A DNA stretch of 64,000 nucleotides from Longimicrobiales bacterium (lineage in GTDB: Bacteria > Gemmatimonadota > Gemmatimonadetes > Longimicrobiales > Gaopeijiaceae): positions 1 to 64,000 of the forward strand of contig CAXXKM010000002.1 in NCBI GenBank assembly GCA_963664435.2. The letters are read 5' to 3'. Shown here in pieces: positions 13,002 to 54,970 of this stretch; the stretch's first letter is position 1; the number at the start of each line of letters is the position of its first letter. The position numbers and the translations under genes are program-made. A model generated the notes under the pieces. That model saw nothing but the letters and a program-made list of their open reading frames with translations. It ran no database searches and had not been told where the DNA came from.

Positions 13002-16000
13002 ATGAACTGACTCAAACTCTTCGCCACAGCTACGCTGATGGCCTTGGCCTTCACCGCCTGCGACGAGGGCACTCCACCGCCTGTGGAGCCGCCCCCGCCG
13101 CCCACTCCCGTGGGAACCATTTCCGGGACGGTGACGGTTGAAGGCACGGCCGCCAGCGGCATCACCGCCACCTTGTCGTCGGGTGCGACCACGACGACCG
13201 GGTCGGGTGGCAGCTTCGCCTTCTCGGGCGTGGAAGCCGGGACCTACACGGTCACCATCAGCGGCTTCCCCGAGGATGCGACGTTCGCCCAGGTGACGCA
13301 GTCCGCGACCATCGCGACGGATGGTCAGAACGTCCAACTCAACTTCGCCGGCGAGTATATCCGCTCCTCCGCGGTGGTCGGCAACGTGGTTGCGGCCGAC
13401 GCGATGATGAGCGGCGGCGACGGTCAGCCCGAGACGCTGGCGGGCGTGACGGTCACGCTCGGCGGCGAGCACGCCATGGGCGAGACCATGGAGACCGACG
13501 AGACCGGCGGCTTTGCCTTCACCGGGCTCCGGGCCGGCACCTACACGGTCACGATCTCGGACTATCCCGAGGATGTTTCCTTCGAGACGGTGATGGTCGA
13601 GGTCCCGGTTGACGTGGGCGATGTCGGCCAGGCCGACTTCACGGGCCACTTCATCCGCACCTCCGCGGTCGCGGGCCAGGTGATCATCGAAGGCGAGGGC
13701 CTTGCCGGGGTGACGGTTACCCTGAGCGGCGGACCCGCCGACGAGAGCTTCACGATGATGACCGACGCCGACGGCATGTACCGGTTCGACGAACTGCGCC
13801 CCGGCGACTACACGGTCTCGATCGCGGACTTCGACCCGCGGGACTACGAGTTCGCGGCCACGTCGCAGGACGTGAGCGTGGACCTGGATGAGACCGGAAC
13901 GGTTTCGTTCACGGGCGTCCTGCTCCGCACTTCCGGCATCAGCGGCCGGGTGAGCGTCGAGGGCATGGGTCTCGGTGACATCGCGGTCACGCTATCGGGC
14001 GCGGCCGACGATACCACGATGACCGACGCGAGCGGCCAATACGCCTTCGCGGGCCTGGCGGCCGGCGACTACACGGTCTCGATCGCGGTCGAGAGCAACG
14101 CCTACGTCTTCGACTCGATGAGCCAGGACAAGACGGTCGGCGACGACGAGTCGGCGATCGTGAACTTCGAGGGCGCGCACGATACGTCGGCGACCCTTAC
14201 GGCGATGCTGTTCATCGACGAGGCATCGAAGAACGACGAGTACGACGAGGGCGAGGACGCCTTCCCGTCGGCTGCCATGCTGGCGGCGCTTCAGGCGGCG
14301 CAGGTTGCGCTGCCGCCAATGCTGCCGGTGCCGGTGACCCTGGTGGGCCCGGAAGTCAATCAGATGAGGTCGGGCACGCTGAACGTCGCGACCGGCCAAG
14401 TCTCGTTTTCGGGGCTGCGCGCAGGCAGTTACCATCTGCAGGTTGGATCCCTCTCCGCGTTGCTGGCCGGACTACCGCCTCAGGTGGCTGCGGTGCTGCA
14501 GGACTACGAGTACGGTGGCCCCTCGGACGGCTACGCGATCGAAATCGATGTCGGCGAGATGGAGATGCAAGCCGTCCCGGTCGACATCACGCACACGACG
14601 GTTCACTTCGCGGTGATGCTGAGACACGGCGACGACACCGGCCATCCGGTCCCCGGCGCCGCCGTGACACTCTACTCGGGTGAGAACAGCGTCGGCAGCG
14701 GCACGACGGGCGAAAACGGTGAGCCGGCCATGATCCGGTTTGCGCGCACCGGCACCAGCGACAACATGGTCAACGCCGGGGTCGCGGTCGACGGCCTCCA
14801 CGTGGCCGACGGCATGACGCCGGTGCCGTGGGATCCGAAGAGCCCGCACACCGCGGCGGCGAACGCAAACGACATCGTCAACCTGAACGTCGCAGTGTCC
14901 GTCAGCGGCGCCACGATCACGACCGATTACGGTGGTGGAGTCGAGCTCGCCAACTGGGCCATCACTGTCATGTCCGGCGAAGAGGCGGTCGAAGACGCAC
15001 CGGAGGCGCTGGGCGAAGACGGCAACACGTCGTTCGGGGCCACAGTGGATGCTGGCGATCTGCCAGTGATGTACTCCTTCGCCGTTGCCGAAGAGCAGGA
15101 CGACGATTTGGACGGCGGCGAGGAGGTCGAGTCGGAATCCGTCGAGTACGAGCACGACGGACTGTCGCTGACCGGCGGGGAGGTCGCGCTCGAAGCGAGC
15201 TTCGCGACCCAGACCCTCAAGGTCTACGTGCACCATGAGCGCGACCAGGTCAAGGGCTTCACCGGCAACGTGCTGGGCGGCGACCTGCGGATGTCCGGAA
15301 TGGTCGACATCGAGGTTCGGTACGTTGCGGACAACGGTCGCACCCGCGCGTTCACGAAGGACATGTGGGATGCTGCGGAGAATACGACGGACAGCAAAGG
15401 CGTGCTGACCTTCTCCGGCGTGCCGGCCGACATGAACGTCATCGTTACCGCGAGAGCGGCTGAAGACAACGTCATGCTTTCCGGTGCCGAACAGCTTGCG
15501 GCATACGAGGACTTCGAGGAGAACGGCGTGTCGGGCAGCGCGTTCGGCGACCTGGGCGGCTTCCACCACACGGTGGAGCTCTGTCCGCTGCAGGACACCA
15601 ATCCGACGGGCCAGGACCATGGAGACTGCGCGTCGTTTGCCTTCGTAAGCGCATTCACGGTCGACGGGCAAGCGTGGAAGAACGAGGTCAAGAAGGACTC
15701 CGGCGACGACTTCGGCAAAGTGAATGTAGTCGGCGTGGAAGGGACTGCGGTCACCCTGGACCCGGTCGCAGGCAAGAACCTCGAGGGCGAGAGCGAGGAG
15801 TTCGAGGCCGCGGGGAGTGACGACAAGTCCACGGACGACATCGACGAGACCAAGCAGTTCGACTTCGGCCGGATGGCCGACGGCGTCTACGAGATCGGCG
15901 TACCGGCCGGCTGGGTTGCGACGGCCGGCATGGGCGGCGACAAGCTGTCCGAGCAGTTCCTGCTCCGGAACAACCTCACCTCCGACGAGGACGAGGACGA

Positions 16001-18320
16001 CGCGGACGACCACCTCAACATCGACGTGACGCCGTCGACGGGTGTCCTCTACGGACGCGTTACCGACGATGCGGGGCTGCCCGCGGAAGGCGTGACCGTC
16101 GATGTGAACGGCCAGACGGACGTGACGGACGAATCCGGTCGCTACATCGTCGAGGGGTTCAGCGGCAGGAGGCCGCCCAGGAAGCCCGTCCTCGTTCAGC
16201 TTTCCGGGACGGGATACGCCTCGAAGACCGACTCCACCACCGTCTCGAAGTTCGCGGCAAACTCGCCGACGAGACAGGACTTCGAACTGACGGGTATTGG
16301 CGACTTCGCCACGTTCAGCGGCATCGTCACGAAGTCCGGCGGCGGAGTCGTTTCGGGTGTGACGATCTCGGTGACAGGTTCGACCTTGATCAACCCGAAC
16401 GCGATGTCACGCGGCGCCACGGAGGACGACATCTACCAGACGGACGACAACGGGGCGTACAGCGTGCAGGTGCGGGCTACCGGCGCCAGCGTGATCCTGA
16501 AGGCGTCCAAGAAGGATCTGTCGTTCTCGCCCGAAGATGGGCACTCCGTCTCGGCCACGGCCGACCAGGACATCTCCGGACTCAACTTCACGGCGTTCGA
16601 CCACGCCATGATATCGGGCAGAGTGCTCAACGAGGACGGCGGTCCCGAGCGGTACGTCAAGATCACGGCGACGCGGGCAGATGACGACTCTCGCACGTAC
16701 TCCGACGTTTCAAGCAGGACCGGGACCTTCACGCTCAGCGTGCCGTACGGCGTCTACGTCATCGGCGGTGATGCCGAGAGCGGTTACACCTTCGAATACC
16801 CGAATGGCATCACGAGGGTGAACGTCGCGCCCGGCCAGAGGCTGGCATACGGCGATATCGAGGCGACGGTATCGGCGACCGGACGGCCTCCGAGATTCAC
16901 CAGCAGCGCCAGCTTCAGCGTCGAAGAGGGTGAGACGGACATCGGCACCGTGGAGGCGGTCGACCCCGATGACGACGATGCGACAATCACCTACTCCGGC
17001 TCGTCGGATGACGTAGCGGTTGCCTCGGACGGCGACCTGGTGTGGGTCGGGACTGCTCCGGCCTACGACGACGATGACGATGACGCCAACGACTACAAGT
17101 TGACGGTCACGGCAACGAGCACCGACGACTTGGGGACCAATTCGACTGACCAGAACGTCACGGTCACCGTGACTGAGAGCGGTGATGCGGTCGTGACGCT
17201 GGTTGTGACGCCGGACGAGATCGTCGAGGGCGGGAGCAGCACGGTAAGTGCGACGCTCGCGTCTGCGGCATCGAGCCCCTTCTCCGTGAATGTGAGCGTG
17301 ACAGCAGACGACAACGCTCGCGGACACCGCGTCAGCACCAACAAGTCGCTGTTCTTCAATGCGGGCGACAAGGAGAGCAGCGGGGCTCCGGTGACGATCA
17401 CATCGAGCAACGACAACGTCCATACCGGCGATCAGACGTTGACGGTGACCGGAACGGTGGAAGGCGCCGACGACATGACCGTCAAGTCGGTTGAGCTCAC
17501 GGTCACGGATAACGACGTGCCGAACGGGCAGGTGAGGCTGGTCCTCAAGAGGTCCCGGATTGACGAGACGGACGACGCCGCCACCACCGGCGACGATAAT
17601 CAGGAAGCCCAGGATACCCTGACGGCTACGCTCGCCGGCGGAACAACGTTCGAAGAGGACATCACGATTGCGGTGACGGTGAGCCCTGCAGGTGTTGTAA
17701 CGCCAGCGGACACAGACGCCGACGCCGACGGTCACCAGATCGGGACGCTGACCATCCTGGCTGGCTCAAGGAGTTCCACCCTTAATGACGATGGCACCGA
17801 TAAGACCACCGATGCCACAATCGTGATCGAGGCGGTCGGTGATAACGAAGATGAGGGTAACACGGTGGTAACCGTGAGCGGAGTCGTAAGTGTTGGTGGC
17901 ACTGCATTGGACGATGATCATGACAGTCAGCCCAACGCCGTCTCCCTGATCATCCTCGACGATGACGCGGCACCGGGCGCTCCGCAGAACATCGATGCAA
18001 GTGTAGACGACGCGGCGGCCGACGCTGACGCCACCGTAACGGTGGAGTGGGACGCTCCGTCGAGCTTGGGCGAGGTGAACGGAACCGCGCCCACTGCTGC
18101 TTACGAGTATCGCTTCGAAGAGGCCTCTGTCATCGGACGCGAGAGTTGGACCGCGGTCACCGCCACCCCCGCCGACGACGGGTCGGTGGAAATGACAATC
18201 ACAGTCGCTGCGGACTCAAACTTGAGGGGCAGAACGGTCACTGTGCAGGTTCGGACGACCAGCGACGCGGGCCAAAGCAGCCCCGTGCCCGACACCGTTG
18301 ACGTTCCGGCTGGCACCTAA
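13002..18320 (+). CDS. Large acidic surface lipoprotein A (carboxypeptidase-regulatory-like/SdrD-B repeats, cadherin/Calx-like, terminal FN3), S-layer-like; in-frame TGA at codon 3
   Basis: ATG AAC TGA CTC AAA... reads MN*LKLFATATLMALAFTAC. The ORF track starts at 13038. Repeated TT...G.F.F.GL.AG.YTV.I modules, D/E/T-rich. Confidence 0.75.
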
Positions 18321-18355
18321 CCTAAACCCGGGTTAGTTCCCGGCAGCAGTAAGAG

Positions 18356-18392
18356 CGCCCCCGCCCGGTTCGCCGGGCGGGGGCGAGCTTTT
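18356..18392 (+). terminator. Intrinsic terminator
   Basis: 13-bp stem CGCCCCCGCCCGG/TTCG/CCGGGCGGGGGCG followed by AGCTTTT. Confidence 0.8.
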
Positions 18393-18495
18393 CGGTCGAA
18401 GACGACCACCCCGGCTCCCGGGGGCACGTCGAATGAGGTCACCAGAAATGCTAGACGACGAGTAGACATATGATTATCCGCAGCAAAGAGGCGGA

Positions 18496-21400
18496 ATGAT
18501 GATTCCGAACAAGCTCAGGATACCGGTCCGGTTCTTCCTGGTCGCCGCGGTGGGCGGCGCGGTCTTGGCGCCATCCATGGGCGCGCATGCCCAGGAGCCG
18601 TTTTCGGATAGTTCGGACGGAGCCGTCCGGCCGGTCGCGAAGCGGGTTGCGGCGAAGGCGGCCGTTCCTCCCAGGATCACCTCGATGCGACATGAGTGGA
18701 CCGGGGACCGGCAGGAGGAATTCCGTCTCGAAATCCGTTTCTCGCAAGCCGTGACGGGCTTCGATGTCGACGACATCCGGGTCTTCGGGGCGACATTGGA
18801 TCGCTCCTCCTTTATCGGCACGACCAGCCGTTATTTCGTCACGATGGATACGTGGCCCAACCGCGAGGACCTGGTCATCGTGACCATCGACGGGAACGTG
18901 GCAGTTAACGACGATGGCGACGGTAACATCGGGGATGACTACACGTTCCACGCGGATACTCGGGCGCCCATTGCCCGCAATGCCGAGGTGGACGGCAGGG
19001 AACTCGTCGTCAGCTTCCACGAAGACCTGGATGAGGGCACGATCCCGCCCGTCGGAAACTTCGACGTGTACGTCACCAGGGACGGTGACCGCGACGACGA
19101 GAGAGTGTCGCGAGTCGAAGTGCAGGCGGCCGAGGTGATCCTGACGCTGGCCCGGGCGGTCCGTTTCGACGACGTCGTCGAGCTGTTCTACGACGACGCG
19201 GGCACGAGAGCCCTTCGGGACGAGGCCGGCAATCTCGCCGATCCCTTCGACCTGCCGGTGGTGAACGAGACCGCCGACGGGGAGGCGCCGGATCCGCCGC
19301 GCGGCCTCTCGGCGGAAGCCGACGGCGCCACCGTGATCGAGTTGAGCTGGCGTGCCCCACTGGACCGCGGCAGCAGCGCGATCATCGGCTACTGGATCGA
19401 GGTGTCGACGGATGGAGGCGACACCTGGTCGACGCTCGTGCGCGACACCGGGGACACCACGACCCGCTACCGGCACACGAGCCTCAGCGCGGACACCACG
19501 CTCCACTATAGGGTCTCCGCAATCAACTCCTACGATACGGGAGACCCGTCCAGCGTCGCGAGCGCCACGACGGAGGAGCACGTTCCGGGCACGCCCAGGG
19601 GACTGACCGCCGGGGCTAGGGGGACATCGGCTATCGAACTGGACTGGAGGGCGCCCTTATCCGCCGGCACGGCCGCGGTGACCGGCTACCGGATCGAGAC
19701 GTCGCCCAACGGCAGGAGCGCTTGGACGGTGCTCGAGGCGGACACGGAATCCACGACCACCGCTTACACGCACAGGGATCTCAGCCCCGGGACTACCCGC
19801 CACTACCGCGTCGCGGCGATCAGCAGGGTGGGCAGGAGCGCGTGGTCGAGCGTCGTGCATGCGACCACCAATGTTACCACTCCGGGCGCGCCCACTGGCC
19901 TGAAGGCGGTTCCGAGTGTTGTGGGGGGAAGCACCCAGCTCCTACTCACCTGGACGCGCCCGGTCACGGACGGCGGGAGCGCGGTGACCGGCTACCGGAT
20001 CGAGACGTCGCCCAACGGCGTCGCGGGCTGGACGCTCGTCGCGGCCGGCACGGCCACCACCTACGTGCACACCGGCCTTGCCCCCGGCACCACCCGATAC
20101 TACCGCGTGGCCGCGGTCAACAGGGTAGGCAGAAGCGCCTGGTCTGACGTCACGCCCGGCACCACCAACCCCGCCTCCCCCGGCCAGCCACAGAACCTGC
20201 GCGCGCGCGGCGCCGGACCGAGGAGCATCACCCTCACCTGGGACGCGCCCACCAGCGACGGGGGGGCGCGCATCACCGGCTACCGCGTCCGGGCGCGCGG
20301 GCCCAACGACGGCACCTGGATCATCGTCCGTCCCAATACGGGTTCGACGGCGACTACCTTCACGCACACCGGCCTCCAGCCGGCGACCGCCTACCGGTAC
20401 CAAGTGGCGGCGATCAACTCGGTGGGAGCCGGCGCGTGGTCGTTCGAGGCGGGGACGAACACGCACCCCGACGTGCCTGGCGCGCCGTTTGACCTGACGG
20501 CCCGGGCCGTCGGCACCTCGCGCATCGACCTGTCGTGGAGCGCACCCAGCAACACCGGCGGCGCCCCGATCCTCGGCTACCGCATCGAGGCCTCGGGCGA
20601 CGCGGGCGGCACCTGGCGCATCATCCGCCGCAACACGGGCTCTACGGCGACGACGTTCTCGGACCTGAACCTTCAGCCGGCGACCACGCGCCACTACCGG
20701 GTCGCGGTAATCAACACCGCGGGGACGGGGCCGTTCTCGAACTACGCGGGCGCGACCACCGACGCGACGCTGCCGGGCGTGCCTCAACGTGTCAGCGCGG
20801 AGGCGGACGGCACATCGCGGATCGAGCTCTCATGGCAGGCACCCACGGGCGACGGGGGCGCGCGGGTCACCGGCTACCGGATCGAGGTCTCGGAAAACGC
20901 GGGCGCGAGCTGGCAGGACCTGGTGGCCAACACCCGCAACACGCTCACGACGTACTCGCACACCGGGCTGGAGCCGGCCACGACGCGGCACTACCGCGTC
21001 TCGGCGGTTAACCGGATCGGGGTGGGCAGGGCGTCGCGGGTGACGAGCGCGACCACCGACGCGACCGTGCCCGACGCGCCCACCGGGCTGGTGGCCACCG
21101 CGGTGACGCCCACGCAGATCAACCTCGCGTGGGTCGCGCCCGCGTATGACGGCGGCGCGCCGATCACCGCCTACCGCATCGAGGTGTCGGAGACCGGCGC
21201 CGCCTGGGCCGATCTGGCGTCCAACTCCGGGTCGACGGCCACTGCGTTTTCGCACACCGGCCTGCAGCCCGGGAGCGTGCGCCACTACCGGGTGTCGGCG
21301 ATCAACCGGGTGGGCGCCGGCGCGGCGTCGACGAGCGCAACGGCAGCGACCGACGATCCCGTCCAACGCGCGGGCCGGCTGAACACGCGCGTGCTGCCTC

Positions 21401-22758
21401 ATGTCGCGGCCGCGATGACCTCGAGCACCGTCTCGGCGATCGCCCGCCGCGTCGACGCGGTGGCCAGCGGGATGGGCATGCAGCGGCGCGTCGAGACGAA
21501 CGGGCTCTCGTCGATGGCCGCGCGCCTGTCCGCGCCGGACGCAGGGGGTCTCGGCCTCGCGCAAGGCGATCAGGCCGGCCTGGCCGCCCTCTTCGGCGGC
21601 ATTTCATTCCAGATGCCCTTGGGCGCCTCCGACGCGCAGCAGCAGTCCGCCACGGGCACGCAGCTGGGGAGCTGGGGAGCGGGCGAGTACCACCACCTCG
21701 GCGAACCCGGCGCGAGCGCCCTCGACTGGAAGGGCAACATGGTGAGCGCCCACGCCGGCCTGGACGTGCGCGTGGGGCCGGACATCCTGGCGGGTGTCGC
21801 GGGCTCGTACTCCTCGGGCAGCTTCGACTTCACCGACAAGACCGGCGCCAGCCCGGTGAGAGGCACCTACGGCGCCACCATGACCAGCGTACATCCCTAC
21901 ATGGCGTGGTTCTCCGGCGCGGGCGGCGCCTCGGTGTGGGGCTCGGCCGGGCTCGGCCGGGGCGACATCGAGGTCGACGACGAGCGCGAGGGACTCCGCA
22001 CCAGCCCCGCGAGCATGCTTACGGGGGCGGGGGGCGCCAGCTATCAGCTGTTCACGCGCGGCACGGGCGGCGTGCGCATCAAGGCCGAGGGCTGGTACGG
22101 CGAGGTCACGGTCGACGGCAGCGAGCAGATCGGAGAGGTGACGCTCGAGATGCAGCGCGGCAAGCTCGCCCTGGAGTTGACGCAGGGCTTCCGCTCCGGC
22201 ACCGAAAGCGAGATGGCGTTCGTGCTCGAGGGCGGCATGCGCTACGACGACGGGGACGCCATCAACGGCACCAGCGCGGAAGTCGGCGGCGGACTCCGCT
22301 ACACGAACCCCGGGCTGGGACTGACCGCGGAGGGCCGCGGGCGGTTCGTGATCTCGGCGCGCCAGGGCTACGAGGAATGGGGCCTCGGCGGCATGCTCAT
22401 GTTCGATCCTGCGGCCCGCGGCCAGGGGCTGCAGGTCAGGGTGGCGCCTTCGTACGGCGACCACACGAGCGGGGTGAACCAGCTCTGGGAGCGCGGCGTC
22501 TCTGACGCGGTGGGCGGCCACGGCCTGGGGATGGGTCCCAACGTGGACGGCGAAGTGGCGTACGGCATCGCCGGCTTCCAGGGGACGCCCTACAGCGGCT
22601 TCTACCTGGGCCAGGGTGGCACGCGGGCCTTCAGCAGCGGCGTACGCTACGATCTGGGCTCAGGGGTCGGGCTGCGCCTCGAAGGTACGCGGCGTGAGAA
22701 GGGGTTCGGGACGGCACAACACACCGTCGGCATCCGGGGACGGTTGCGCTTCCGGTAG
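18496..22758 (+). CDS. Autotransporter-like adhesin A: Ig-like, SwmB-like, 7 fibronectin type III domains, beta-barrel
   Basis: Signal peptide, LRDEAGNLA, seven P..P..L...W..P..GG..I.GYRIE...YRV.AIN repeats, barrel ending GRLRFR. Confidence 0.85.
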   Translation: MMIPNKLRIPVRFFLVAAVGGAVLAPSMGAHAQEPFSDSSDGAVRPVAKRVAAKAAVPPRITSMRHEWTGDRQEEFRLEIRFSQAVTGFDVDDIRVFGATLDRSSFIGTTSRYFVTMDTWPNREDLVIVTIDGNVAVNDDGDGNIGDDYTFHADTRAPIARNAEVDGRELVVSFHEDLDEGTIPPVGNFDVYVTRDGDRDDERVSRVEVQAAEVILTLARAVRFDDVVELFYDDAGTRALRDEAGNLADPFDLPVVNETADGEAPDPPRGLSAEADGATVIELSWRAPLDRGSSAIIGYWIEVSTDGGDTWSTLVRDTGDTTTRYRHTSLSADTTLHYRVSAINSYDTGDPSSVASATTEEHVPGTPRGLTAGARGTSAIELDWRAPLSAGTAAVTGYRIETSPNGRSAWTVLEADTESTTTAYTHRDLSPGTTRHYRVAAISRVGRSAWSSVVHATTNVTTPGAPTGLKAVPSVVGGSTQLLLTWTRPVTDGGSAVTGYRIETSPNGVAGWTLVAAGTATTYVHTGLAPGTTRYYRVAAVNRVGRSAWSDVTPGTTNPASPGQPQNLRARGAGPRSITLTWDAPTSDGGARITGYRVRARGPNDGTWIIVRPNTGSTATTFTHTGLQPATAYRYQVAAINSVGAGAWSFEAGTNTHPDVPGAPFDLTARAVGTSRIDLSWSAPSNTGGAPILGYRIEASGDAGGTWRIIRRNTGSTATTFSDLNLQPATTRHYRVAVINTAGTGPFSNYAGATTDATLPGVPQRVSAEADGTSRIELSWQAPTGDGGARVTGYRIEVSENAGASWQDLVANTRNTLTTYSHTGLEPATTRHYRVSAVNRIGVGRASRVTSATTDATVPDAPTGLVATAVTPTQINLAWVAPAYDGGAPITAYRIEVSETGAAWADLASNSGSTATAFSHTGLQPGSVRHYRVSAINRVGAGAASTSATAATDDPVQRAGRLNTRVLPHVAAAMTSSTVSAIARRVDAVASGMGMQRRVETNGLSSMAARLSAPDAGGLGLAQGDQAGLAALFGGISFQMPLGASDAQQQSATGTQLGSWGAGEYHHLGEPGASALDWKGNMVSAHAGLDVRVGPDILAGVAGSYSSGSFDFTDKTGASPVRGTYGATMTSVHPYMAWFSGAGGASVWGSAGLGRGDIEVDDEREGLRTSPASMLTGAGGASYQLFTRGTGGVRIKAEGWYGEVTVDGSEQIGEVTLEMQRGKLALELTQGFRSGTESEMAFVLEGGMRYDDGDAINGTSAEVGGGLRYTNPGLGLTAEGRGRFVISARQGYEEWGLGGMLMFDPAARGQGLQVRVAPSYGDHTSGVNQLWERGVSDAVGGHGLGMGPNVDGEVAYGIAGFQGTPYSGFYLGQGGTRAFSSGVRYDLGSGVGLRLEGTRREKGFGTAQHTVGIRGRLRFR

Positions 22759-22818
22759 AGAGCAGGAACGGCGGCGAGAAGACCCGGGGGAAGGTCCCCA
22801 GCGGACAGCCACGGGCGC

Positions 22819-23082: not shown

Positions 23083-23115
23083 CGTGTCACCTCCTTCCCT
23101 GGCCGGGGCATAAAA

Positions 23116-23147: not shown

Positions 23148-23447
23148 CACTCTTCCACGCGTCACCGGCCCGGATGCCCCGGCTGAACAGCGTTGCCAAC
23201 CCTGCCCGGCAGCCTGTCCCACAGCGTCCGCGACCGCCTGGGTCGCGGGCGGCAGATCCGACAGGCCGGTAGCGAGGGGATTGCGTCGACGACGAAGGCA
23301 GGATCGAGATAGGGGGACGCCATCCTCATCAAGACCGCCCCGCACCAGCAGCGACCGCACGGGACTCGCTGCCGCCGATTCGGCGGCAGCTTCGGAGACA
23401 CGGTGGCCGAACGCCTTGTTGTAGAGATAATCGCTGGTGCAATAGTA
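23148..23447 (-). pseudogene. Frameshifted relic of the C-terminal tail of an M66-like peptidase lipoprotein
   Basis: SDYLYNKAF..VRSLLVRGGLDEDG / YLDPAFVVDAIPSLP / TLFSRGIRAGDAWK match the end of 36101-40870. Confidence 0.7.
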
Positions 23448-23454
23448 GGGCCCG

Positions 23455-23610
23455 CGCGATCTCAGGCGGCTCCTGATCACCGGAGCCATGGCGGTTATTC
23501 GGCACGCGATCCGGTGCGGCGCGAACACGGATCCGTGGCTGGCCGCGATGTTGTCACGCAAGCCGAACAAGGTAGTCGCGGTGGCACTCGCAAACCCGAT
23601 CGCCGCCGGA
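23455..23610 (+). mobile_element. IS110-family transposase C-terminal fragment
   Basis: RDLRRLLITGAMAVIR...WLAAMLSRKPNKVVAVALAN. Confidence 0.75.
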
Positions 23611-23621
23611 AGGTCCGGACC

Positions 23622-23727
23622 GCCGGTCGGCTCGACCACCGGCTCAAGACCCTCACCCACCCCGTGCTCCTGGTCGTAGACGAGATCGGCTACCTCTCGG
23701 TCACCCGCAGCGGCGCCATCCTCTTGC
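23622..23727 (+). mobile_element. istB: IS21 IstB helper ATPase fragment
   Basis: GRLDHRLKTLTHPVLLVVDEIGYL.VTRSGA.LL (Walker B region). Confidence 0.7.
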
Positions 23728-23864
23728 ACTCCCCGACGTGTCTGTCGTATTCATTGCCGGCGCAATCGCGTAGTAATCGCACATGCTACGATCGCATGAG
23801 AAGTTCGGCGCGCGCCGTTGCGACATCTGGATCAATTGGAGCACCGAGGAAGAGAGTGGAAGCA

Positions 23865-32018: not shown

Positions 32019-32149
32019 CCTGTAACTCCTTAGGTTTGTCCAGGCGCCCGGAGGTGTGACAGACCTCCTTCCGATCACGCATTGGGCACCAACGTCAAAG
32101 CCATAAATAATAGCCCCCGTCAGGGCCGAGAGCCAGTGAACCTGAGGTG

Positions 32150-33010: not shown

Positions 33011-33125
33011 GCCGATGACTCGCGTAGTAGTCGCGATAATCAAGTATCGTATGACATGGCCGGCGCGCAGCCGATGCGAAAGGCCCCCCCCAACACCGAA
33101 ACGGGCAGGGCGAGGAGAGATGGAC

Positions 33126-40870: not shown

Positions 40871-40883
40871 TTTTGACCTCACC

Positions 40884-45077: not shown

Positions 45078-48000
45078 CTACCGGAAGCGCAACCTCCCCC
45101 GGATGCCGACGGTGTGCTGCGCCGTCCCGAGCGTGCTCTCGCGTCGCGTACCTTCCAGGCGCAGCCCGACACCTGACCCGAGGTCGTAGCGCACGCCGCT
45201 GCTGAAGGCCCGCGTGCCACCCTGGCCGAGGTAGAAGCCGCTGTAGGGCGTCCCCTGGAAGCCGGCGATGCCGTAGGCGACCTCGCCGTCCACGTTGGGA
45301 CCCATTCCCAGGCCGTGGCCGCCCACCGCGTCCGAGACCCCACGCTCCCAGAGTTGGTTCACCCCGCTCGCGTGGTCGCCGTACGAAGGCGCCACCCGGA
45401 GCGAGAGCCCCTGGCCGCGGGCCGCAGGATCGAACATCAGCATGCCGCCGAGACCCCATTCCTCGTAGCCTTGGCGCGCCGAGATCACGAACCGCCCGCG
45501 GCCCTCCGCGGTCACGCCCAAGCGGGAGTTCGTGTAGCGGAGCCCGCCGCCGACTTCGGCACTGGTGCCGTTGATGGCGTCGCCGTTGTCGTAGCGCATC
45601 CCGCCCTCGAGCACGAACGCCATCTCGCTGTCGGTGTCGGTGCGGAAGTTCTGAGTCAACTCCAGGGCAAGCTTGCCGCGCTGCATCTCGAGCGTCACCT
45701 CTCCGATCTGCTCGCTGCCGTCGACCGTGACCTCGCCGTACCAGCCCTCGGCCTTGATGCGCACGCCGCCCGTGCCGCGCGTGAACAGTTGATAGCTGGC
45801 GCCTCCCGCCCCCGTAAGCATGCTGGCAGGGCTGGTGCGCAGTCCCTCGCGCTCGTCGTCGACCTCGATGTCGCCCCGGCCGAGCCCGGCCGAGCCCCAT
45901 ACCGAGGCGCCGCCCGCGCCGGAGAACCACGCCATGTAGGGATGTACGCTGGTCATGGTGGTTCCGTAGGTGCCCCTCACCGGGCTGGCGCCCGTCTTGT
46001 CGGTGAAGTCGAAGCTGCCCGAGTTGTACGAACCGGCGACACCCGCCAGGATGTCCGGTCCCACGCGCACGTCCAGACCGGCGTGGGCGCTCACCATGTT
46101 GCCCTTCCAGTCGAGGGCGCTCTGGCCGGGTTCTCCGAGGTGGTGGTACTCGCCCGCGCCCCAGCTCCCCAGCTGCGTGCCCGTGGCGGACTGCTGCTGC
46201 GCGTCGGGGGCGCCCAAGGGCATCGTAAATGAGGTGCCGCCGAAGAGGGCGGCCAGGCCGGTCTGGTCGCCCTGCGCGAGGCCGAGACCTCTTGCGTCCG
46301 GCGCGGACAGGCTTGCGGCCATCGACGAGAGTCCGTTCGTCTTCACGCGCCGCTGCATGCCCATCCCGCTGGCCACCGCGTCGACGCGGCGGGCGATCGC
46401 CGAGACCGTGCTCGATGTCATCGCGGCCGCCACGTGCGGCAGCACGCGCGTGTTCAGCCGTCCCGCCCGCCCGACGGGGTCGTCGGTCTCGGCCGATGCG
46501 CTCACCGACGGCGCGCCGGTGCCCACCCGGTTGATCGCCGAGACGCGGTAGTGGCGCACGCTCCCCGGCAGCAGGCCGGTGTGCGAGAACGCGGTGGCCC
46601 TGGACCCGGTATTGACCACCAGGTCCGTCCACGCGGTGCCGGTCTCCGACACCTCGACGCGGTAGCCGGTGACGGGGGCGCCGCCGTCGTAGGCGGGCGC
46701 AGCCCAGAACAGGTCGATCTGCGTAGGCGAGACCGCGGTGGCCACCAACCCGGTGGGGGCGTCTGGCACCGTGGCGTCGGTAATGGCGCTCGCCACCCGC
46801 GACGCCCGGCCCTCGCCGATCCGGTTGATCGCCGAGACGCGGTAGTGGCGCCTGGTGGCCGGCTCGAGCCCCGTGTGCACGTAGGTCGTGCGCGTGTTGC
46901 GCGAGTTGGCCAGCAGGTCACCCCAGCGGACGCCGCCGTCTTCGGACACCTCGATCCGGTAGCCGGTGATGCTCGCGCCCCCGTCTCTCGTGGGCGCCAG
47001 CCAGGAAAGCTCGATCCGCGAGGTGCCGTCGGCCTCCGCGTCGAGACTCCGGGGCGCGCCCGGCACGGTGGCCTCGGTCGTCGCGCGCTCGACGTTCGAA
47101 AAGGGCCCGGTCCTCAATGCAGTGTTGATCGCGGCAACCCGGTAGTGCCGCGTGGTCGCGGGCTGGAGGTTCACGTCGGAGAACGTCGTCGCTTTCGAGT
47201 TCGTGTTGCGGCGGATAATGCGCCAGGTGCCGCCCCCGTCGTCGGAGGCGTCGACCCGATAGCCGAGGATGGCGACGCCGCCGGTGTTGCGGGGCGCACT
47301 CCACGAAAGGTCGATGCGCGAGGTGCCCACCGCGCGGGCCGTCAGCCCGACCGGTGCCTCGGGAGTGCCGGCGTATGTCTCCGTGCTCGCCGGGAACGAC
47401 CGCTGGCCGGGTCCCACGCGGTTGATCGCCGCCACCTGGTACTCGTAGGCGGTGGCCGGCTTGAGGCCCGTCGTGTCCGTGAAGGTGGTCGCCGCCGAAC
47501 CCGTGGTGCGAACGATCGAGATCAACGCGCCATCCTTGGGGCCGCGCCAAATTGTGTAGCCGGTGATTCGCTCCCCGCCGTCGCTGGCCGGCGCGTCCCA
47601 GGCGAGTGTGATGCTGTTCGGTCCCGTCGGCCGCGCGCGCAGGTTCCGGGGCTGGCCGGGCGGTGCGGCGCGGGTGGCGCCTCTGACCCCGTTCGAGTAG
47701 TTCCCCTGCCCCTGGGCGTTGAGCGCGGCCACCCGATAGAACCGGGTCGTGTTGGGGGCGAGACCGGTATGCAGATAGGTGGTGGCCGTGCCGGTGGGGC
47801 CGGGTACGAGGAAGGTCCAGTCCGGGGTACCGGCGGAACGCCACTGGATCCGGTAGGCGGTAATCGGACTCCCGCCGTTCGAGGCCGGGGCCCTCCAGTT
47901 GAGGAGGATGCGGTCGCTCCCCCCCACAACGGGCGCGGTCGCCGTGAGGCGCGTGGGCGCGCCCGGAACCGTGACTTCGGTGGTCGCGTGGGCGACGCTC

Positions 48001-49382
48001 GACCAGGGGCCCGTGCCCGCCGCGTTGATCGCCGCGACGCGGTAATGACGGGTGGTGCCGGGGCTGAGGCGGGTGTGGGTGTATGAGGTGGCTCTGTTAT
48101 TCCCCACGAGCAGCGTCCACCCGCGGGTTCCGGTTCCGGTCTCCGACCACTCGATGCGGTAGCCGGTGACCGGGGCTGAACCGCTGGAGGAGGGGGCGGT
48201 CCAGCTCAACTCGATGGTCGACGTCCCCCCGGGGGCCGCCGTCAATCGTGACGGCGCGTCCGGGACGCGCTCGGGCTCGGGCTCCTCCGTTGTGGCTCTG
48301 CCGACGCTGGAAGGCGCTCCCGTGTCGTAGGAGTTGATCGCCGAGACCCTGTAGTGGCGCGTGGTGCCCGCGGTGAGGCCCGTGTGGCGGTAGCGGGTCG
48401 CGGTGCTCCGGGTGTTCGATACCCGGTTCGACCAGGTGGCGCCACCGTCGCTCGACACCTCGATCAAGTACCCGATGATCGCGCTGCTGCCTTCGTCCAG
48501 CGGCTCATCCCAGTCCAGGTCGATCGCCGTGGCGCCGGAGGCCGTCGTCGCGAGGTTCCGCGGCCGACCGGGCGCCCTCCCCTCGGCCGTCTCGTTCACC
48601 ACCGAAAAGGCGTGGATGTCAGGCGCGAGATTGCCGGCCTCGTCCCTGAGCGCGCGGGTGCCCGCGTCGGCGTCGTAGTCCAGCTCAACGTCGTCGCCGG
48701 CGCGCACCGCGCGCGCCAGCGTCAGGATCACCGCCGATCCATCGACATCGACCCCCGACACCCGCTCGACGTCGCGGTCGCCGTCCCGGGTCACGAACAC
48801 GTCGAAGTTCCTGGCGGGCGGGACGGTGCTCTCATCCAGATCCTCGCTGAAGGTGACGGTGAGCTCCCTGCCGTCCACTTCGGCATTGAGGTGCCTGGGC
48901 GCCCGGGTGTCCGCGTGGAACGTGTATACATCCCCGTTATTGCCCTCGCCATCGTCGTTGGTTGCCACGTTCCCGTTTATGGTCACGATGACCTGGGCCT
49001 CGTGGTTGGGCCACGTGTTCATCGTCACGAAGTAGCGCCTGGCGGGGCCGCTGGTAGGCGCAAAGGAGTTGCCATCCTTCGTCGCCCCAAAGACCTGGAT
49101 GTCGTCGACCGTGAAACCCGTCACTTCCTGCGAAAAAAGGATCTCGAGACGGAATTCCTCCTGCCTGAAACCGGTCCAATCATGCGTCATCCTGCTGATC
49201 CGGGGACGGACGGCCGCGTCCGTCGTGCCGGTTCCCGCGACCGGTCTGACCACCTTGTCGTCCGAACCTCCTGGAGACACCTCCTCGGCACGCGCGGCGG
49301 CGGGAGGAACCATAGACCCGCAGATCACGGCGACCGCCAAGACCGCACGGGCTGCCACATCAAGCTGTTTCGGGATCATCAT
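45078..49382 (-). CDS. Autotransporter-like adhesin B (paralogue of 18496-22758)
   Basis: Same Ig/SwmB/7xFN3/barrel layout. Barrel near-identical, passenger diverged. Confidence 0.85.
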   Translation of the reverse strand: MMIPKQLDVAARAVLAVAVICGSMVPPAAARAEEVSPGGSDDKVVRPVAGTGTTDAAVRPRISRMTHDWTGFRQEEFRLEILFSQEVTGFTVDDIQVFGATKDGNSFAPTSGPARRYFVTMNTWPNHEAQVIVTINGNVATNDDGEGNNGDVYTFHADTRAPRHLNAEVDGRELTVTFSEDLDESTVPPARNFDVFVTRDGDRDVERVSGVDVDGSAVILTLARAVRAGDDVELDYDADAGTRALRDEAGNLAPDIHAFSVVNETAEGRAPGRPRNLATTASGATAIDLDWDEPLDEGSSAIIGYLIEVSSDGGATWSNRVSNTRSTATRYRHTGLTAGTTRHYRVSAINSYDTGAPSSVGRATTEEPEPERVPDAPSRLTAAPGGTSTIELSWTAPSSSGSAPVTGYRIEWSETGTGTRGWTLLVGNNRATSYTHTRLSPGTTRHYRVAAINAAGTGPWSSVAHATTEVTVPGAPTRLTATAPVVGGSDRILLNWRAPASNGGSPITAYRIQWRSAGTPDWTFLVPGPTGTATTYLHTGLAPNTTRFYRVAALNAQGQGNYSNGVRGATRAAPPGQPRNLRARPTGPNSITLAWDAPASDGGERITGYTIWRGPKDGALISIVRTTGSAATTFTDTTGLKPATAYEYQVAAINRVGPGQRSFPASTETYAGTPEAPVGLTARAVGTSRIDLSWSAPRNTGGVAILGYRVDASDDGGGTWRIIRRNTNSKATTFSDVNLQPATTRHYRVAAINTALRTGPFSNVERATTEATVPGAPRSLDAEADGTSRIELSWLAPTRDGGASITGYRIEVSEDGGVRWGDLLANSRNTRTTYVHTGLEPATRRHYRVSAINRIGEGRASRVASAITDATVPDAPTGLVATAVSPTQIDLFWAAPAYDGGAPVTGYRVEVSETGTAWTDLVVNTGSRATAFSHTGLLPGSVRHYRVSAINRVGTGAPSVSASAETDDPVGRAGRLNTRVLPHVAAAMTSSTVSAIARRVDAVASGMGMQRRVKTNGLSSMAASLSAPDARGLGLAQGDQTGLAALFGGTSFTMPLGAPDAQQQSATGTQLGSWGAGEYHHLGEPGQSALDWKGNMVSAHAGLDVRVGPDILAGVAGSYNSGSFDFTDKTGASPVRGTYGTTMTSVHPYMAWFSGAGGASVWGSAGLGRGDIEVDDEREGLRTSPASMLTGAGGASYQLFTRGTGGVRIKAEGWYGEVTVDGSEQIGEVTLEMQRGKLALELTQNFRTDTDSEMAFVLEGGMRYDNGDAINGTSAEVGGGLRYTNSRLGVTAEGRGRFVISARQGYEEWGLGGMLMFDPAARGQGLSLRVAPSYGDHASGVNQLWERGVSDAVGGHGLGMGPNVDGEVAYGIAGFQGTPYSGFYLGQGGTRAFSSGVRYDLGSGVGLRLEGTRRESTLGTAQHTVGIRGRLRFR

Positions 49383-49621
49383 GCTGCCTCTTTTCGAGTG
49401 GTCGGTTCCCGGTGTGGAAGGGGTTCACTGGGCTTCGTGCGCGCCGCACTTCGGATTCCGGCTGCGCCGCCGCCTCCTCGGTCGCACAGATCGCCGTGCC
49501 CGCGTGGCCTGCTTCCTTCGCTTTGGGGTTTCTCGTTCTTCGTCGGTAGCCACTTCTTCATGGCGCAATCGACTGTTTGAGATGCTCCCGGGGAGGCGCT
49601 TCGGTGTGTGTGTCTTCGATG

Positions 49622-49660
49622 GGAACAACTGGCCCCCGCCCGGCGGACCGGGCGGGGGCC
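49622..49660 (-). terminator. Intrinsic terminator after S-layer-like gene B
   Basis: Stem GGCCCCCGCCCGG/TCCG/CCGGGCGGGGGCC followed by AGTTGTT. Confidence 0.7.
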
Positions 49661-49696
49661 GTCTTCACTGCTGCCGGGGATTAGCCCGGGTTGAGA

Positions 49697-52600
49697 TTAA
49701 GAGGGCACAGTAAAGGTTACGGTCGCGACGCGGCTCTTGAGATCCGCGGGATCAGTACCATGGACTGTTCGAACCTGCACCGTGTATCCCTCCTCGTTTA
49801 GATCAGGAGATATACTAGTGACCTCGAAGTTGCCGGTGGTGGCATCCAAGGCTGCAGCGGTCCAACCACCACCAGTAGCACCAGGCGCCCAATCACTGTC
49901 TACGGCTACGGACAAGAGTGCGCTTCTGATGTAGCGGTACTGGTAGGTAACGTCAGCGATTTCGTCACCGTCAATGGATCCGTTGTCGTCGGTGTCCCCC
50001 GGTGTAACTCCATCCACCTTGCCCTTGTTCGATGGAGCCTTCCACGTCAGCGTGAAGCTAGTAGCCGATGGGTTGCCGACGACCGTAAGACCGGCCGGCA
50101 TACCTGGTGCCGCATCATCGTCGGTGACGGTCAGGTAGACGCCGTCGGGCTGATCGGCGGTCGCCAAAGCGTCCCGGTCAGTGTCGGTATCGGGACCATC
50201 GTCCATCGTAGCCGTTCCGGTCACCGTCACCACCGTGTTGACAGCATCGGCGTCATCGTCTGCGGTAATCGTGACTGATGCTACGCCCACGCCGGCTGAG
50301 GCGGCTGAGGCGCGTTTCCCGGCCTCGATAAACAGCGTAGCATCCTCAACCGTCGTCGATACAGATGCACCGTCCGACACCGAGATTACAACGTGGAGGT
50401 CCGTCGGGAACGTCGTGCCACCTACCAACTTAGCGGCCACGGTCGTGGCGTCGTCATCGCCCGACTCGTCAATCGACGTCTCATCCAACTCAAGTACGAT
50501 CCTGCCGTACGCGAGGTCGTCGTCCTCGATCAAGAGCTTCGCGGACTTGACCTCCATGTTGGCGATCGTGGGCGACATGGTTCCTGACACCGTTACTGCC
50601 CGCTTGTAGCCATTGGCTTCGGTGCCTGCGTTATACACGTTGTCATTGTTGATCGCCGTGATCGTCACGGAGGGTCCGGAACTGCTCGTCTCGCCCTCCC
50701 GGATGGTCAGTGTCTTGTTGGAGCTAAATTCGACCTCGGCATCCTGCGTTTCGCCATAGTTCCTACTATCTGTGGCAGAGACCGTCACGTAGAACTCGCT
50801 GGGCGCCGGATCCTCGAGCGTCGCGGTTACCGTGCTCGTCCCGCCAGCTTCGGAGATACTGGCCGGGTCCAGCTTCAGCGTCACGACCACATTGTCGCTC
50901 GCCGTCACGGTGACCGTGACTTCCGCGGTCGTTTCGTTATCACCACTGCCAACGTTAGTGCCGGAGCTCGTTACCGTGACGTCCAACGTCTTCTTGTTGT
51001 TGGCTGCGACCTTGTCGTCGTGGGACGGAGCTGACCCTACCCACCGCAGTTCGCCGTCACCGGTGACGTGGAGGTTGTTGTTTGACCCGGACCAAGCGAA
51101 TTTCGCCTTCGAATCGTCGTCGTCCACCGCCTTCATGTCGCCGATCTTCGACCCTGTCTTCTCTTCGTAGCTGAAGCTGGTCGTGGTGATTCTCGGAGGC
51201 CGGCCGCCTTCCACTATCGCCGCCGCGATGTTGAAGGGATAGTCCTCGCCGGGCCTGAGGTTGATCGTCAGCGGTGTGCTCACATTACCCGGATAGGTGT
51301 AGTCGTACCCCTCACTCACAGCCGTGACCGTGTAGCTGCCGTACGGCACCCTGATGCTGAAGGCGCCCGCACTATTGGTGACGTCGGATTTCACCACCAC
51401 CCTGTCGTCGCCCTCCCCTTGGGAGGCCTCGACCTTGACGTTCGCCTGGGGGTTGCCATCCACGGTCACCCTGCCGAGGATCGTGGCGTATTCGAAGCCG
51501 GTGAAGTTGGGTCCGGGGAACGAGCCGGCCCTGGCCTGTTGCGTGTACTCGCCGGGCTGGAACGACATGCCGTCCATGGATGCCGACAGGGTAACGTCCG
51601 CGCCGTTGGCTTCCACCATCACTTCGTACGTGCCGTCGGCTCCCGTCTTGTAGATGTCATCCGTCTTGCTGTTCTTCGACTTCGCGTTCGGGTTGAGCAA
51701 GTCCGAGCCGTCCACCGTGATCTCCACACCCGAAAGCGCTCCGCCGCCGGCCGCCGTGACGGTGCCGGTGAACGTGGCCGCTGAGCCGGAGCCCGTGACG
51801 GTCATGTCGTACTCCGCCGGGCTGTTCGCCGCGAAGTCGGGAACCTTGTGGGAATCGGTTGCCGAGGAGTACGTCTTCGAGGCGTACCCCGCCCCGGAAA
51901 GCTTCACTTCGATGGCCGGGCGGCCCGCCTTCGGCTTGCTGAAGCCCTCGACGACGTAGCGACCGAATTCGTCGGTCGGGTCCGACGCGTCCACGCCGTT
52001 CACGCTGACGGTCACGCCTTCCGCGGGCACGCCGTCCTGGTTCTCCACGATCCCGTAGAGGAACCCTGTCGTCGGCGTCACGTCGATGTTGAGGTGGCCG
52101 TCGCCCGTGAGTGTGCTGGCGAGCAGGAACTCCTCGGACAGCTCGTCGCCGTCCATGCCGGCCGTCGCCATCCAGCCGTCCGGAACACCGACGGAGTAGG
52201 CGCCGTCGACCATGCTGCCGAAGTCCAACTTGTCCTCGCCCTCGGCGGCCTCGCCTTCGAGGTTCTTGTCAGCGACCGGCGTCATGGAGACCGTGATCCC
52301 GGCATCCTTGACCACCGTATCCTCTGCCTTGAAGCCGTCGTCGCTGTCCATCTCGCGGACGTTCTTCCACGCCTGTCCGTTCACCGTGTAGGTCCTGATG
52401 AAGCCGAACGACGCGCACCCGCGGCCTGCGACCTGCATCGGACAGAGCTCGACCGTGTGGTGGTAGCCGCCCTGCTCGCCGAACACGCTGCTTGTATTCG
52501 GGATGCCGTTGTCGTCGAAATCCTCGTAGGTGGCAAGCTGGTCGGAGCCGTGAATGATGACGTTCTCGCCCGCCGCATTCGCCGTGACGATGACGTCCAG

Positions 52601-54970
52601 GCCGGACGGCAGGTGCGCGAACGTGTACACGCCGGCCGAGTCGCTCGTGTTCTCGGCCGCGTCCCAGTCCTCGCTCGAAATCGCGCGGGTCCGGGTGCCG
52701 GACCCGGCTTGACGGACCTCGACGTCGAGCACTCCGGACATCATCTCGTCGTCGCCCAGCGCGGTGCCGGTGTAGCCTTCCACCTGGTCCTTCTCGTGGT
52801 ACACGTAGACCATGAGCGTCTGGGTCGCGAAGCTGGCCTCGATCGCGACGTCCTGCGCGCCGGCCAGCGAAAGCCCGTCGTGCTCGTGCTCGACCGCTTC
52901 CGCCGCGATCATCTCGCCGTTGTCCAGGTCGTCGTCCTGCTCTTCGGCGACCGCGAACGTGAAGGTTGCCGGCAGATCGGCGTACATCACCGCGCTCGTG
53001 AACGATGCCGTACCGTCGTCGCCCAGCGCCTCCGGCGCGCCTTCGGCTGCTTCGTCGCCGCTCATCACCTCGATGGCCCAGCCGCCGAGCTCGACTCCGC
53101 CGCCGTGTGCGGTCTCGACCGTCGTGCCGGTGACGTTCAGCTCGACGTTCAGGTTGACGATGTCGGCCTCGTTGGAGGCCGCGTGCATGTTGGACTGCGG
53201 ATTCCACGTCACGGCCTGCATTCCCTCGGCGGCCACATGATAGTCGGCCACGGAGACCTGCGCGTAGACCATGTTACCGCTGGTATCGTCACGATCGACC
53301 CGGATCATCGCCGAGCCGTCCGCGCCGGTCTCGCCGCTGCCGACCATGGTCTCACCGGCCGCGTCCGAGTAGAGGTCCACGGCGGCGCCTTCGAGCGCCG
53401 GACCGCCGTCGTCGCCGTGCTTCAGCGCGACGCTGAAAGTGACCCTCGTGTGCGTGATGTCGAACGGAACGGCCTGCGTCCTGGCTTCGCCGACTCCGAG
53501 GGCGAAGGCGTAGCCCGTCCCCGGTCCGCCGTAGGCGACGTCGGCGGCCGCGAGCGCCGCCGCGACCGTGGCGTCGATCGGCACGACCAGCTGGTACGAG
53601 CCGGCGCGCAGACCTGAGAACATGAAGCTGCCATCCGGGCCGGTCGCGCTCAGCCGCTGGTCATTGACCCCGGGGCCCACCAGTGCAACCGGTATACCGG
53701 CGTGCGCGAGCGGATACTCGCCTTCGTCGTGCATGTCGTTGTTGTCAAGTTCGTCGATGAACAGCATTCCCGAGACGCTCGCCGTGGTGGCGTGCGCGCC
53801 CTCGAAGTTCACGATCGCCGACTCGTCGTCGCCGACCGTCCTGTCCGTGCTCATCGCGTCGAACACGTAGGCGTCGCTCTCGACCGCGATCGAGACCGTG
53901 TAGTCGCCGGCCGCCAGGCCCGCGAAGGCGTACTGCCCGCCCGCGTCGGTCATCGTGGTGTCGTCGGCCGCACCCGAAAGCGTGACCGCGATGCCCTCGA
54001 GACCCATGCCCTCGACGCTCACCCGGCCGCTGATGCCCGAGGTGCGGAGCAGGACACCCGTGAACGAAACCGTTCCGGTCTCATCCAGGTCCACGCTCAC
54101 GTCCTGAGACGTGGCCGCGAACTCGTAGTCCCGCGGGTCGAAGTCCGCGATCGAGACCGTGTAGTCGCCGGGGCGCAGTTCGTCGAACCGGTACATGCCG
54201 TCGGCGTCGGTCATCATCGTGAAGCTCTCGTCGGACGGGCCGCCGCTCAGGGTGACCGTAATGCCGGCAAGCCCCTCGCCCTCGATGATCACCTGACCCG
54301 CGACCGCGGAGGTGCGGATGAAGTGGCCCGTGAAGTCGGCGTCGCCGACCTCGCCCAGCCCGACATCGACCTCGACCATCACCGTCTCGAACGAGACGTC
54401 CTCGGGGAAGTCCGAGATCGTGACCGTGTAGGTCCCGGCCCGGAGCCCGGTGAAGGCGAAGCCGCCGGTCTCGTCGGTCTCCATGGTCTCGCCCATGGCG
54501 TGCTCGCCGCCGAGCGTGACCGTCACGCCCGCCAGCGTCTCGGGCTGGCCGTCGCCGCCGCTCATCATCGCGTCGGCCGCAACCACGTTGCCGACCACGG
54601 CGGAAGACCGGATATACTCGCCGGCGAAGTTGAGTTGGACGTTCTGACCATCCGTCGCGATGGTCGCGGACTGCGTCACCTGGGCGAACGTCGCATCCTC
54701 GGGGAAGCCGCTGATGGTGACCGTGTAGGTCCCGGCTTCCACGCCCGAGAAGGCGAAGCTGCCACCCGACCCGGTCGTCGTGGTCGCACCCGACGACAAG
54801 GTGGCGGTGATGCCGCTGGCGGCCGTGCCTTCAACCGTCACCGTCCCGGAAATGGTTCCCACGGGAGTGGGCGGCGGGGGCGGCTCCACAGGCGGTGGAG
54901 TGCCCTCGTCGCAGGCGGTGAAGGCCAAGGCCATCAGCGTAGCTGTGGCGAAGAGTTTGAGTCAGTTCAT
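49697..54970 (-). CDS. Large acidic surface lipoprotein B (paralogue of A), same TGA at codon 3
   Basis: N-terminus identical to A. TGA at 54964-54962. The ORF track starts at 54934. Body diverges inward of 53791. Confidence 0.75.

Follow-up and report, generated by a model that had tools for sequence, protein, structure and literature searches.

The DNA analyzed here is a stretch of 64,000 nucleotides (the window) that makes up the first 64 kb of contig C2 (CAXXKM010000002.1) in the assembly of a Longimicrobiales bacterium (GCA_963664435.2, hereafter G000), a genome of 4.5 Mb and 68% GC that is 96% complete and lies on three contigs (C1, C2, and C3). Two genes in the window, A (13038-18320, plus strand, 1760 residues counted from Met13) and B (49697-54934, minus strand, 1745 residues), point inward, and their predicted product is a large lipoprotein of transthyretin/immunoglobulin (Ig)-like repeats. 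A and B are identical up to 13363, first differ at 13364, 13367, and 13373, and past 13363 show 50 mismatches over 818 bp (94% identity) without insertions or deletions up to 14181/53791, beyond which they diverge; by 200-residue block, the identity of the proteins is 97% in the first block, 91% in the second, and 38-60% in later ones. An FN3-rich partner gene lies 3′ of each, and the two partners are 77% identical. An earlier note on this stretch had described inward-facing genes with constant 5′ ends and variable bodies, each with its own FN3 partner, and the sequence comparison bears this out. The note's label of S-layer, on the other hand, found no support: no S-layer or anchoring domain was present among 11 Pfam families, 0 NCBIfam families, three PDB matches (NOMO2, pyrogallol hydroxytransferase), and the Atlas matches. 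S-layer proteins are often unrecognizable from sequence. The C terminus of the FN3 partner had an Atlas score of 0.96 to clusters of PF03797 (autotransporter barrel), and PF03797 itself was not matched in Pfam.

The identity of A and B spans the whole of the upstream flank, which we call P. At the contig start, C2:1-13363 is an inverted copy of C2:54609-67971 with 0 mismatches, which means that the assembly contains flank P two times, joined to A in one place and to B in the other; window 1-13352 is a second assembled copy of this flank and not a second genomic copy. A mixed population, as the earlier note proposed, thus explains the palindromic start of the contig. Throughout, junctions were judged from the assembly sequence and from contigs of public sequencing runs. 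P carries a sigma-54-type -24/-12 site (TGGCAC-N5-TTGC), a motif that lies ahead of 20 of 24 full-length copies examined; an RpoN-box motif and four GAFTGA motifs are present in the genome, and a sigma-70 promoter scan gave nothing clearly over chance level.

The second, promoterless flank was searched for and found on contig C3, where we call it dock Z. The end of this contig (C3:1778193-1794204) repeats C3:1145985-1129957 in inverted orientation; the latter stretch is body C of a third paralogue, and the full gene of body C starts at C3:1146294 (locus W). At Z, a tyrosine integrase gene (C3:1776946-1778097) lies directly upstream of an AT-rich arm of ∼75 bp, followed by GCCGGG-GAGTATA-TCCG, which leads in frame into a body at codon 104. 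This body is without the first 103 codons and has no promoter, start, or signal peptide. In the integrase, Arm-DNA-bind_3 (PF13356, which we take to be DUF4102; residues 21-104), Phage_int_M, and Phage_integrase all score over the cut-off, so that the enzyme is not of the armless, Xer-like type (Rci/Rin), and the closest PDB chains are integrase domains. The arm profile has a single match in the G000 genome. The arm motif GTGATAAC also occurs at L021:11924-11945, just upstream of the integrase start, and is kept in relatives, where it may serve autoregulation.

The 11-mer GAGTATATCCG (window 13353-13363) has four sites in the 4.5-Mb assembly, namely A, B, W, and Z, and A and B cease to be identical at the last base of these 11 bp that Z and P have in common. 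The match of Z to P begins only at 13347 (17 bp) and has one mismatch at 13352. Given that the divergence of P-A from P-B sets in at 13364 and that the match of Z to P reaches back no further than 13347, the exchange point is, on sequence comparison, confined to 13353-13363. A short in-frame site therefore joins a constant 5′ part to alternative 3′ parts, and an intact site-specific recombinase adjoins it, both as in a shufflon. The junctions present in the assembly are P-A, P-B, W-C, and Z-C. The inverted orientation of the sites is seen directly on C3 for Z and W, on a single contig in the relative G014, and, for Z and P, by way of a join supported by synteny. Two further full paralogues, D and E on C1, have GAGTACA and GAGTACG at the putative 7-bp overlap versus GAGTATA in the three exchanging bodies, and show no swapped or duplicated junction.

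The earlier note had proposed a crossover in the ∼1.2-kb shared 5′ block, by homologous recombination or a trans-acting enzyme, and pointed to the Campylobacter fetus sap genes. The 94% identity of A and B to the right of the core would suit RecA-type homologous recombination, as would a body tree in which body clades are mixed over flank types, an outcome that gene conversion could also give. In this quick tree of 30 rows (one of which, L006, is mislabeled as truncated because it lies at a contig end), flank types and body types are mixed in a way that does not distinguish the mechanism. However, identity ends at the first informative base past the core, and the stretch common to Z and P is only 17 bp with one mismatch. 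A crossover of 11 bp is too short for RecA. With an intact tyrosine integrase lying directly upstream of the promoterless flank, we regard homologous recombination in this block as quite unlikely; two further points that speak against it come from the relatives and the public runs described below.

Overall, we consider it likely, judging from these sequences, that the paralogues make up a cassette switch of the shufflon kind, by which a domesticated tyrosine integrase with an arm domain (IntSXT/P4-type) varies a large surface lipoprotein. The adjacent integrase would act on its own one-armed Z site and on the bare core in an inverted full gene. The Z core falls in frame within the linker that follows the first Ig-like repeat, and recombination between Z and a full gene would swap bodies in frame; each body would carry its own autotransporter along, and the leucine-rich repeat (LRR) and Ig passengers would merely ride. 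Most likely, C3 continues at Z into the 41-kb segment, which gives the map C<-W ... Z->[A ... B]<-P. We infer this join of C3 to C2 because the P and Z upstream blocks neighbor each other in four of five near-complete relatives tested (G005, G001, G009, and G014), where they lie 10-13 kb apart around one lipoprotein and autotransporter pair. On this map, Z x P would flip 41.3 kb (13353-54619), and Z x W (C3:1145973-1145979) would flip ∼632 kb. Four states would result (W-C/Z-A/P-B, W-C/Z-B/P-A, Z-C/W-A/P-B, and Z-C/W-B/P-A), so that W would stand with C, C, A, or B. The products would again be one armed and one bare site, which would make the reaction reversible. After the ∼632-kb flip, Z and P would be direct repeats, and their recombination would delete the chromosome between them. 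As for the placement of the 632-kb flip on the replichores, GC skew in 50-kb bins and scans for dif and DnaA boxes did not locate the origin or terminus; a synteny search upstream of W returned chiefly repeated elements. The switch would likely serve to vary the outermost surface protein, together with its autotransporter, in the face of host recognition or phage.

The association of integrase and dock is conserved among 19 genomes of the genus, which are kin and not independent. Integrases at ≥83% identity number 16 and occur in 13 of the 19 genomes; none was found in the other six. All 16 sit ∼90-155 bp ahead of an arm and a headless body, versus none of 14 more distant integrases examined out of 64 such matches, and this tie to headless cassettes (16/16) is a first further point against RecA-type recombination. 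The headless cut falls at the linker after repeat 1 in 12 cases and at the equivalent linker after repeat 2 (codon ∼203) in four, and a 17th dock (G012:C27) sits behind an internally deleted integrase. RKHRHY is kept in all 16 integrases, and the ratio of nonsynonymous to synonymous substitution rates versus G000 is 0.16-0.31. The integrases of G011 and G014 were suspected of being broken, which we rejected, as the stops precede the true start, Met15. The aligned dock sites read TGCCGGN-[7 bp]-TCCG, several with a perfect CGGA/TCCG inverted repeat flanking the 7 bp, which we take to be the lambda-family core layout. Further, a pattern search with 16 matches in the 19 genomes placed the linker-2 overlap CATTATA in full genes of G003 and G007 alone, and each of these two has a linker-2 dock. 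Inward-facing pairs of a dock and a full gene also occur in G014 (19 kb apart) and G010 (23 kb, A-like opposite B-like).

Several features of the relatives stand on their own. Three docks (L049, L050, and L051, in G012, G010, and G018) have an extra A in the core (GAATACA-A-TCCG), a change that could lock the switch or cause a frame shift once exchange has occurred. At the locus of G009 orthologous to P (L157, G009:C2:1129000-1144000), the autotransporter gene runs opposite to the lipoprotein gene, an arrangement not seen in G001, G005, and G014. G006:C1 and G008:C1 hold 15 and 14 lipoprotein matches, mostly full-length, with no switch integrase found, which suggests repertoire expansion instead of switching. 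In G010, the gene that faces the dock (L222:17000-17700; G010:C3:1297665) has its promoter and first codons replaced by foreign sequence. A weak match to the arm profile (E 0.003) 3′ of an integrase of 65% identity (L065:2231-2295; G003:C58) may mark the island family from which the enzyme originated. A short paralogue in G014 that ends just past linker 2 and is without the usual promoter (L155:7145-7830; G014:C1:2439145) was tried as an attL and rejected, because the arm profile did not match.

We also looked for alternative junctions in the contigs of public sequencing runs. More than half of the words of window 11000-20000 occur in six runs of three studies, and one of these runs is labeled as a sponge metagenome. 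Four runs (X1, X3, X5, and X6) were compared at the Z junction, as contigs and not as reads, among the contig pieces listed. In X1 and X5, which belong to two studies, the Z contig stops at L021:13210, the last base of the 11-mer, whereas in X3, it extends to 13250 in the letters of body C with no difference. To simulate these break points, we walked a k=31 graph for every one of the 15 mixtures that the four predicted states allow (k=31 being deduced from one contig overlap). A break at 13210 required Z-B plus Z-A or Z-C, and a break at 13213 corresponded to Z-A with Z-C; 13250 with C letters arose only from Z-C without W-C, and the assembly as it stands gave 13229. Set against this simulation, the observed breaks imply that the promoterless flank is joined to gene B in two studies and that the samples differ in state. 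From run to run, the body after Z thus differs starting with the first base beyond the core, a second further point against RecA-type recombination. Together with P-A/P-B and W-C/Z-C in the assembly, the run-specific break points are indirect evidence of alternative orientations in the population.

The same observations bear on an assembly artefact, by which chimeric reads or a mis-join via the paralogous 5′ repeats would have created the arrangement. In its favor, each duplicated arm is found at the end of a contig and has roughly the length of one long read (13.4 kb on C2 and 16.0 kb on C3), and 19 single-base gaps fall within the last 4.6 kb of the C3 arm. However, one and the same 11-mer, present four times in the genome, is the break point of two contig ends; relatives from separate deposits have the headless junction at the same codon; and the break points of the run contigs are those expected from alternative junctions, not those expected from the assembly. 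We therefore consider an artefact highly improbable. As a further alternative, Z could be the attR end of an integrative element once inserted in a lipoprotein gene, with the arrangements fixed in co-occurring strains and mixed by the assembler. An arm-binding domain is typical of mobile elements, according to PMC8138268; in addition, the module was not found in six of the 19 genomes and occupies several chromosomal positions, as nine of the 16 docks lie at the orthologous Z block, three at a second shared site, and four without a Z-block match. Yet tblastn found no attL-like orphan 5′ gene fragment followed by non-body DNA in the 96% complete G000 assembly, and the arm profile matches just once. 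Further, the two arrangements have 0 differences over the 13.4 kb of the P flank and 11.4 kb of the C arm, which points to near-clonal cells; the runs differ in state; and the same position is kept in nine species under purifying selection. We judge a relic of integration to be unlikely.

The natural start of P at 13002 reads ATG AAC TGA, that is, it has an in-frame stop at codon 3 (mirrored at 54962-54964), where paralogues D and E have CGA. This change from CGA to TGA is found at one locus per genome in seven genomes, all within the 13 that have the switch integrase; the loci outside the window are G002:C34, G003:C374, G004:C2, G007:C29, G010:C1, and G011:C25. It affects eight of 47 matched starts (two of them the duplicated P) versus none of 21 starts in the six integrase-free genomes. 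Because it is present at both P-type and D/E-type promoters and because near-identical upstream regions differ in it, the TGA is likely to have more than one origin. It could act as a null or as a leaky UGA-C, or be bypassed by a restart at Met13 with too short a signal. If it is null, W may be the actual expression site in this strain, and the 41-kb flip would then only pick the spare. The earlier note had an inversion of ∼41 kb place A or B behind a single sigma-54 expression site; the inversion and the one sigma-54-type promoter are supported, but the single site is too simple, as W would exchange with the same dock, D and E are full loci, and P has a nonsense codon 3. A more extended reading, which we put forward tentatively, is that an island integrase with an arm domain has been turned into a multi-locus shufflon on the scale of the chromosome, whose one-armed dock stores 5-kb bodies and trades them, along with their autotransporters, with any inverted paralogue of the same 7-bp overlap, reversibly and over hundreds of kb, with the overlap addressing the participants; P would then be a second silent or low-output store, with the 41-kb flip choosing the spare and the 632-kb flip delivering it to W.

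Several points weigh against the cassette switch that we propose. Lambda-type integrases carry out a reaction between arm-plus-core and bare core poorly, and the single genomic match of the arm profile means that the reaction would be of just this kind. The junctions Z-A, Z-B, W-A, and W-B are predicted ones, X6 is gapped at the site, and a co-occurring strain with a different base after the core would yield the same contig break. In G010, the P and Z blocks lie on separate contigs. Only nine of the 17 docks have the same 7-bp overlap in a full gene of their own assembly (two of the nine only if the extra A in the dock is ignored), eight are without, and G002, G004, and G011 have assembled copies with a mismatching overlap; accordingly, some switches would seem to be locked, or the overlap rule to be looser. 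Finally, given the codon-3 TGA at P, the 41-kb flip by itself may leave the surface proteins of this strain unchanged.

The features of the window are collected in Table 1.

Table 1. Features of the window, with positions counted from its first base
Feature	Position	Strand	Basis or remark
Second assembled copy of flank P (PKD/Big_9 protein, SCO1, PCuAC, outer membrane protein, acyl-CoA synthetase, SSF symporter)	1..13352	+	Exact match to C2:54609-67971 reverse complement; Pfam
N-terminal remnant of unrelated arm-domain integrase	12362..12835	-	Mirror 55137-55610 +; PF13356 E 1e-4; best other match C1:719500 at 56%; Z integrase unmatched
Sigma-54-type -24/-12 site	12889..12903	+	Mirror 55069-55083 -
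Constant 5′ part: lipoprotein signal peptide, in-frame TGA 13008-13010, lipobox Cys 13059-13061, first Ig-like repeat	13002..13352	+	
Putative recombination core GCCGGC-GAGTATA-TCCG, codons 104-109 from Met13	13347..13363	+	Shared 11-mer 13353-13363; putative 7-bp overlap 13353-13359
Variable body A: transthyretin-like CarboxypepD_reg/SdrD_B repeats, then more beta-rich domains	13353..18320	+	
GC-rich hairpin between lipoprotein and autotransporter genes (possible attenuator)	18356..18385	+	Read off sequence; not among terminator-scan results; similar hairpin after B
FN3-repeat autotransporter-like gene accompanying body A	18496..22758	+	
Passenger, LRR and PD40 protein	23403..29135	+	Pfam
Passenger, repeated element, probably an insertion sequence	30612..32136	.	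98% copy on C1; weak transposase match for adjoining open reading frame 32120-32551
Passenger, Big_2 repeat protein	32631..35831	+	
Passengers, two LRR/Ig proteins (36101-40882, 40884-43391)	36101..43391	-	
FN3-repeat autotransporter-like gene accompanying body B	45078..49382	-	
Variable body B	49697..54619	-	
Putative recombination core at B	54609..54625	-	Putative overlap 54613-54619
Constant 5′ part and sigma-54-type promoter of locus P	54620..55083	-	Chromosomal position in the proposed map

The integrase remnant upstream of P was considered as a component of the switch and rejected on its matches as given in Table 1. It lies, with a DUF2335 gene, in a strain-specific insert between the SSF symporter and the promoter (window 10430-12650) that is not at this place in relatives. 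The LRR passenger was likewise considered as a type III effector and rejected, because the NCBIfam matches are all under the cut-off and reflect the LRRs. Elsewhere in G000, we note a short paralogue of repeated N-terminal units with near-identical tandem blocks (C3:706829-708925) and an 11.9-kb inverted duplicate of 99.97% identity (C2:129333-141278 versus C3:59459-71404), which may be a recent duplication or another rearrangement and is adjoined by a 1.1-kb exact repeat (C2:111559-112664 = C3:72499-71394). Further, an exact overlap of 3.2 kb (C1:1596087-1599286 = C2:1114652-1117851) makes C1 joinable to reversed C2.

The proposed switch resembles shufflons (Rci-pilV of R64/IncI, which is a shufflon, and Rin) in its constant 5′ coding part, short crossover site within the gene, inward-facing alternative 3′ parts, and tyrosine recombinase at the far end. 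Rin, from Bifidobacterium prophages, has an 11-bp site and a tyrosine invertase without an arm-binding domain, and its variable parts measure ∼100 residues (PMC6109161). Unlike Rin, the enzyme here has an arm-binding domain, and its own site is flanked on one side by a conserved arm. The variable parts here run to ∼1,430-1,650 residues and are joined by passengers and a partner gene of 4.3 kb; the exchange would involve two partner loci and cover 41 kb and probably 632 kb. In vpma of Mycoplasma agalactiae, a Xer-type recombinase serves genes in one compact cluster with sites at their 5′ ends, unlike the site here, which lies after the first folded repeat and has dispersed sigma-54 loci as partners. 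The two systems are alike in that site-specific inversions by a neighboring recombinase (Xer1 in vpma) select the surface lipoprotein (PMC5634654). C. fetus sap is similar in its paralogous large surface proteins, conserved 5′ ends, and inversion relative to one promoter. The sap cassettes are complete, promoterless open reading frames that recombine in long homology without a dedicated recombinase, whereas here an integrase adjoins a headless spare and the crossover spans ≤11 bp, so that the system is not of the sap type. Switching of sap in a recA mutant is mentioned in PMC5634654.

In its domains (Arm-DNA-bind_3, Phage_int_M, and Phage_integrase), its RKHRHY residues, and the position of its gene beside an att-like site, the enzyme is like the IntSXT/P4-type island integrases, a group of arm-domain recombinases that PMC8138268 describes as integrases from phages and from integrative and conjugative elements. 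Those enzymes integrate and excise islands near tRNA, guaA, or prfC genes (same paper), whereas here no second element end was found, the site lies in frame inside a surface-protein gene, and the outcome would be inversion. No published description of this system was found in the literature searched, with most subscription papers outside its reach, and no case of an arm-domain integrase acting as a reversible invertase on a one-armed site, or of programmed surface variation in such a lineage, was found there either; the portion of PMC10469786, on sponge Gemmatimonadota, that was available does not cover the topic and mentions neither S-layer nor integrase. If true, the proposed switch would mean programmed surface variation in an uncultured, probably sponge-associated lineage, would explain, in concrete terms, why contigs break and large rearrangements occur in these genomes, and would offer a compact enzyme-site pair. 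Further, an arm-domain integrase, of a class linked to directional integration and excision (PMC8138268), would serve as an invertase that works in both directions, with a one-armed site of its own and an in-frame target of 11 bp. Compared with known switching by site-specific inversion, it is the enzyme class and the scale that are unusual.

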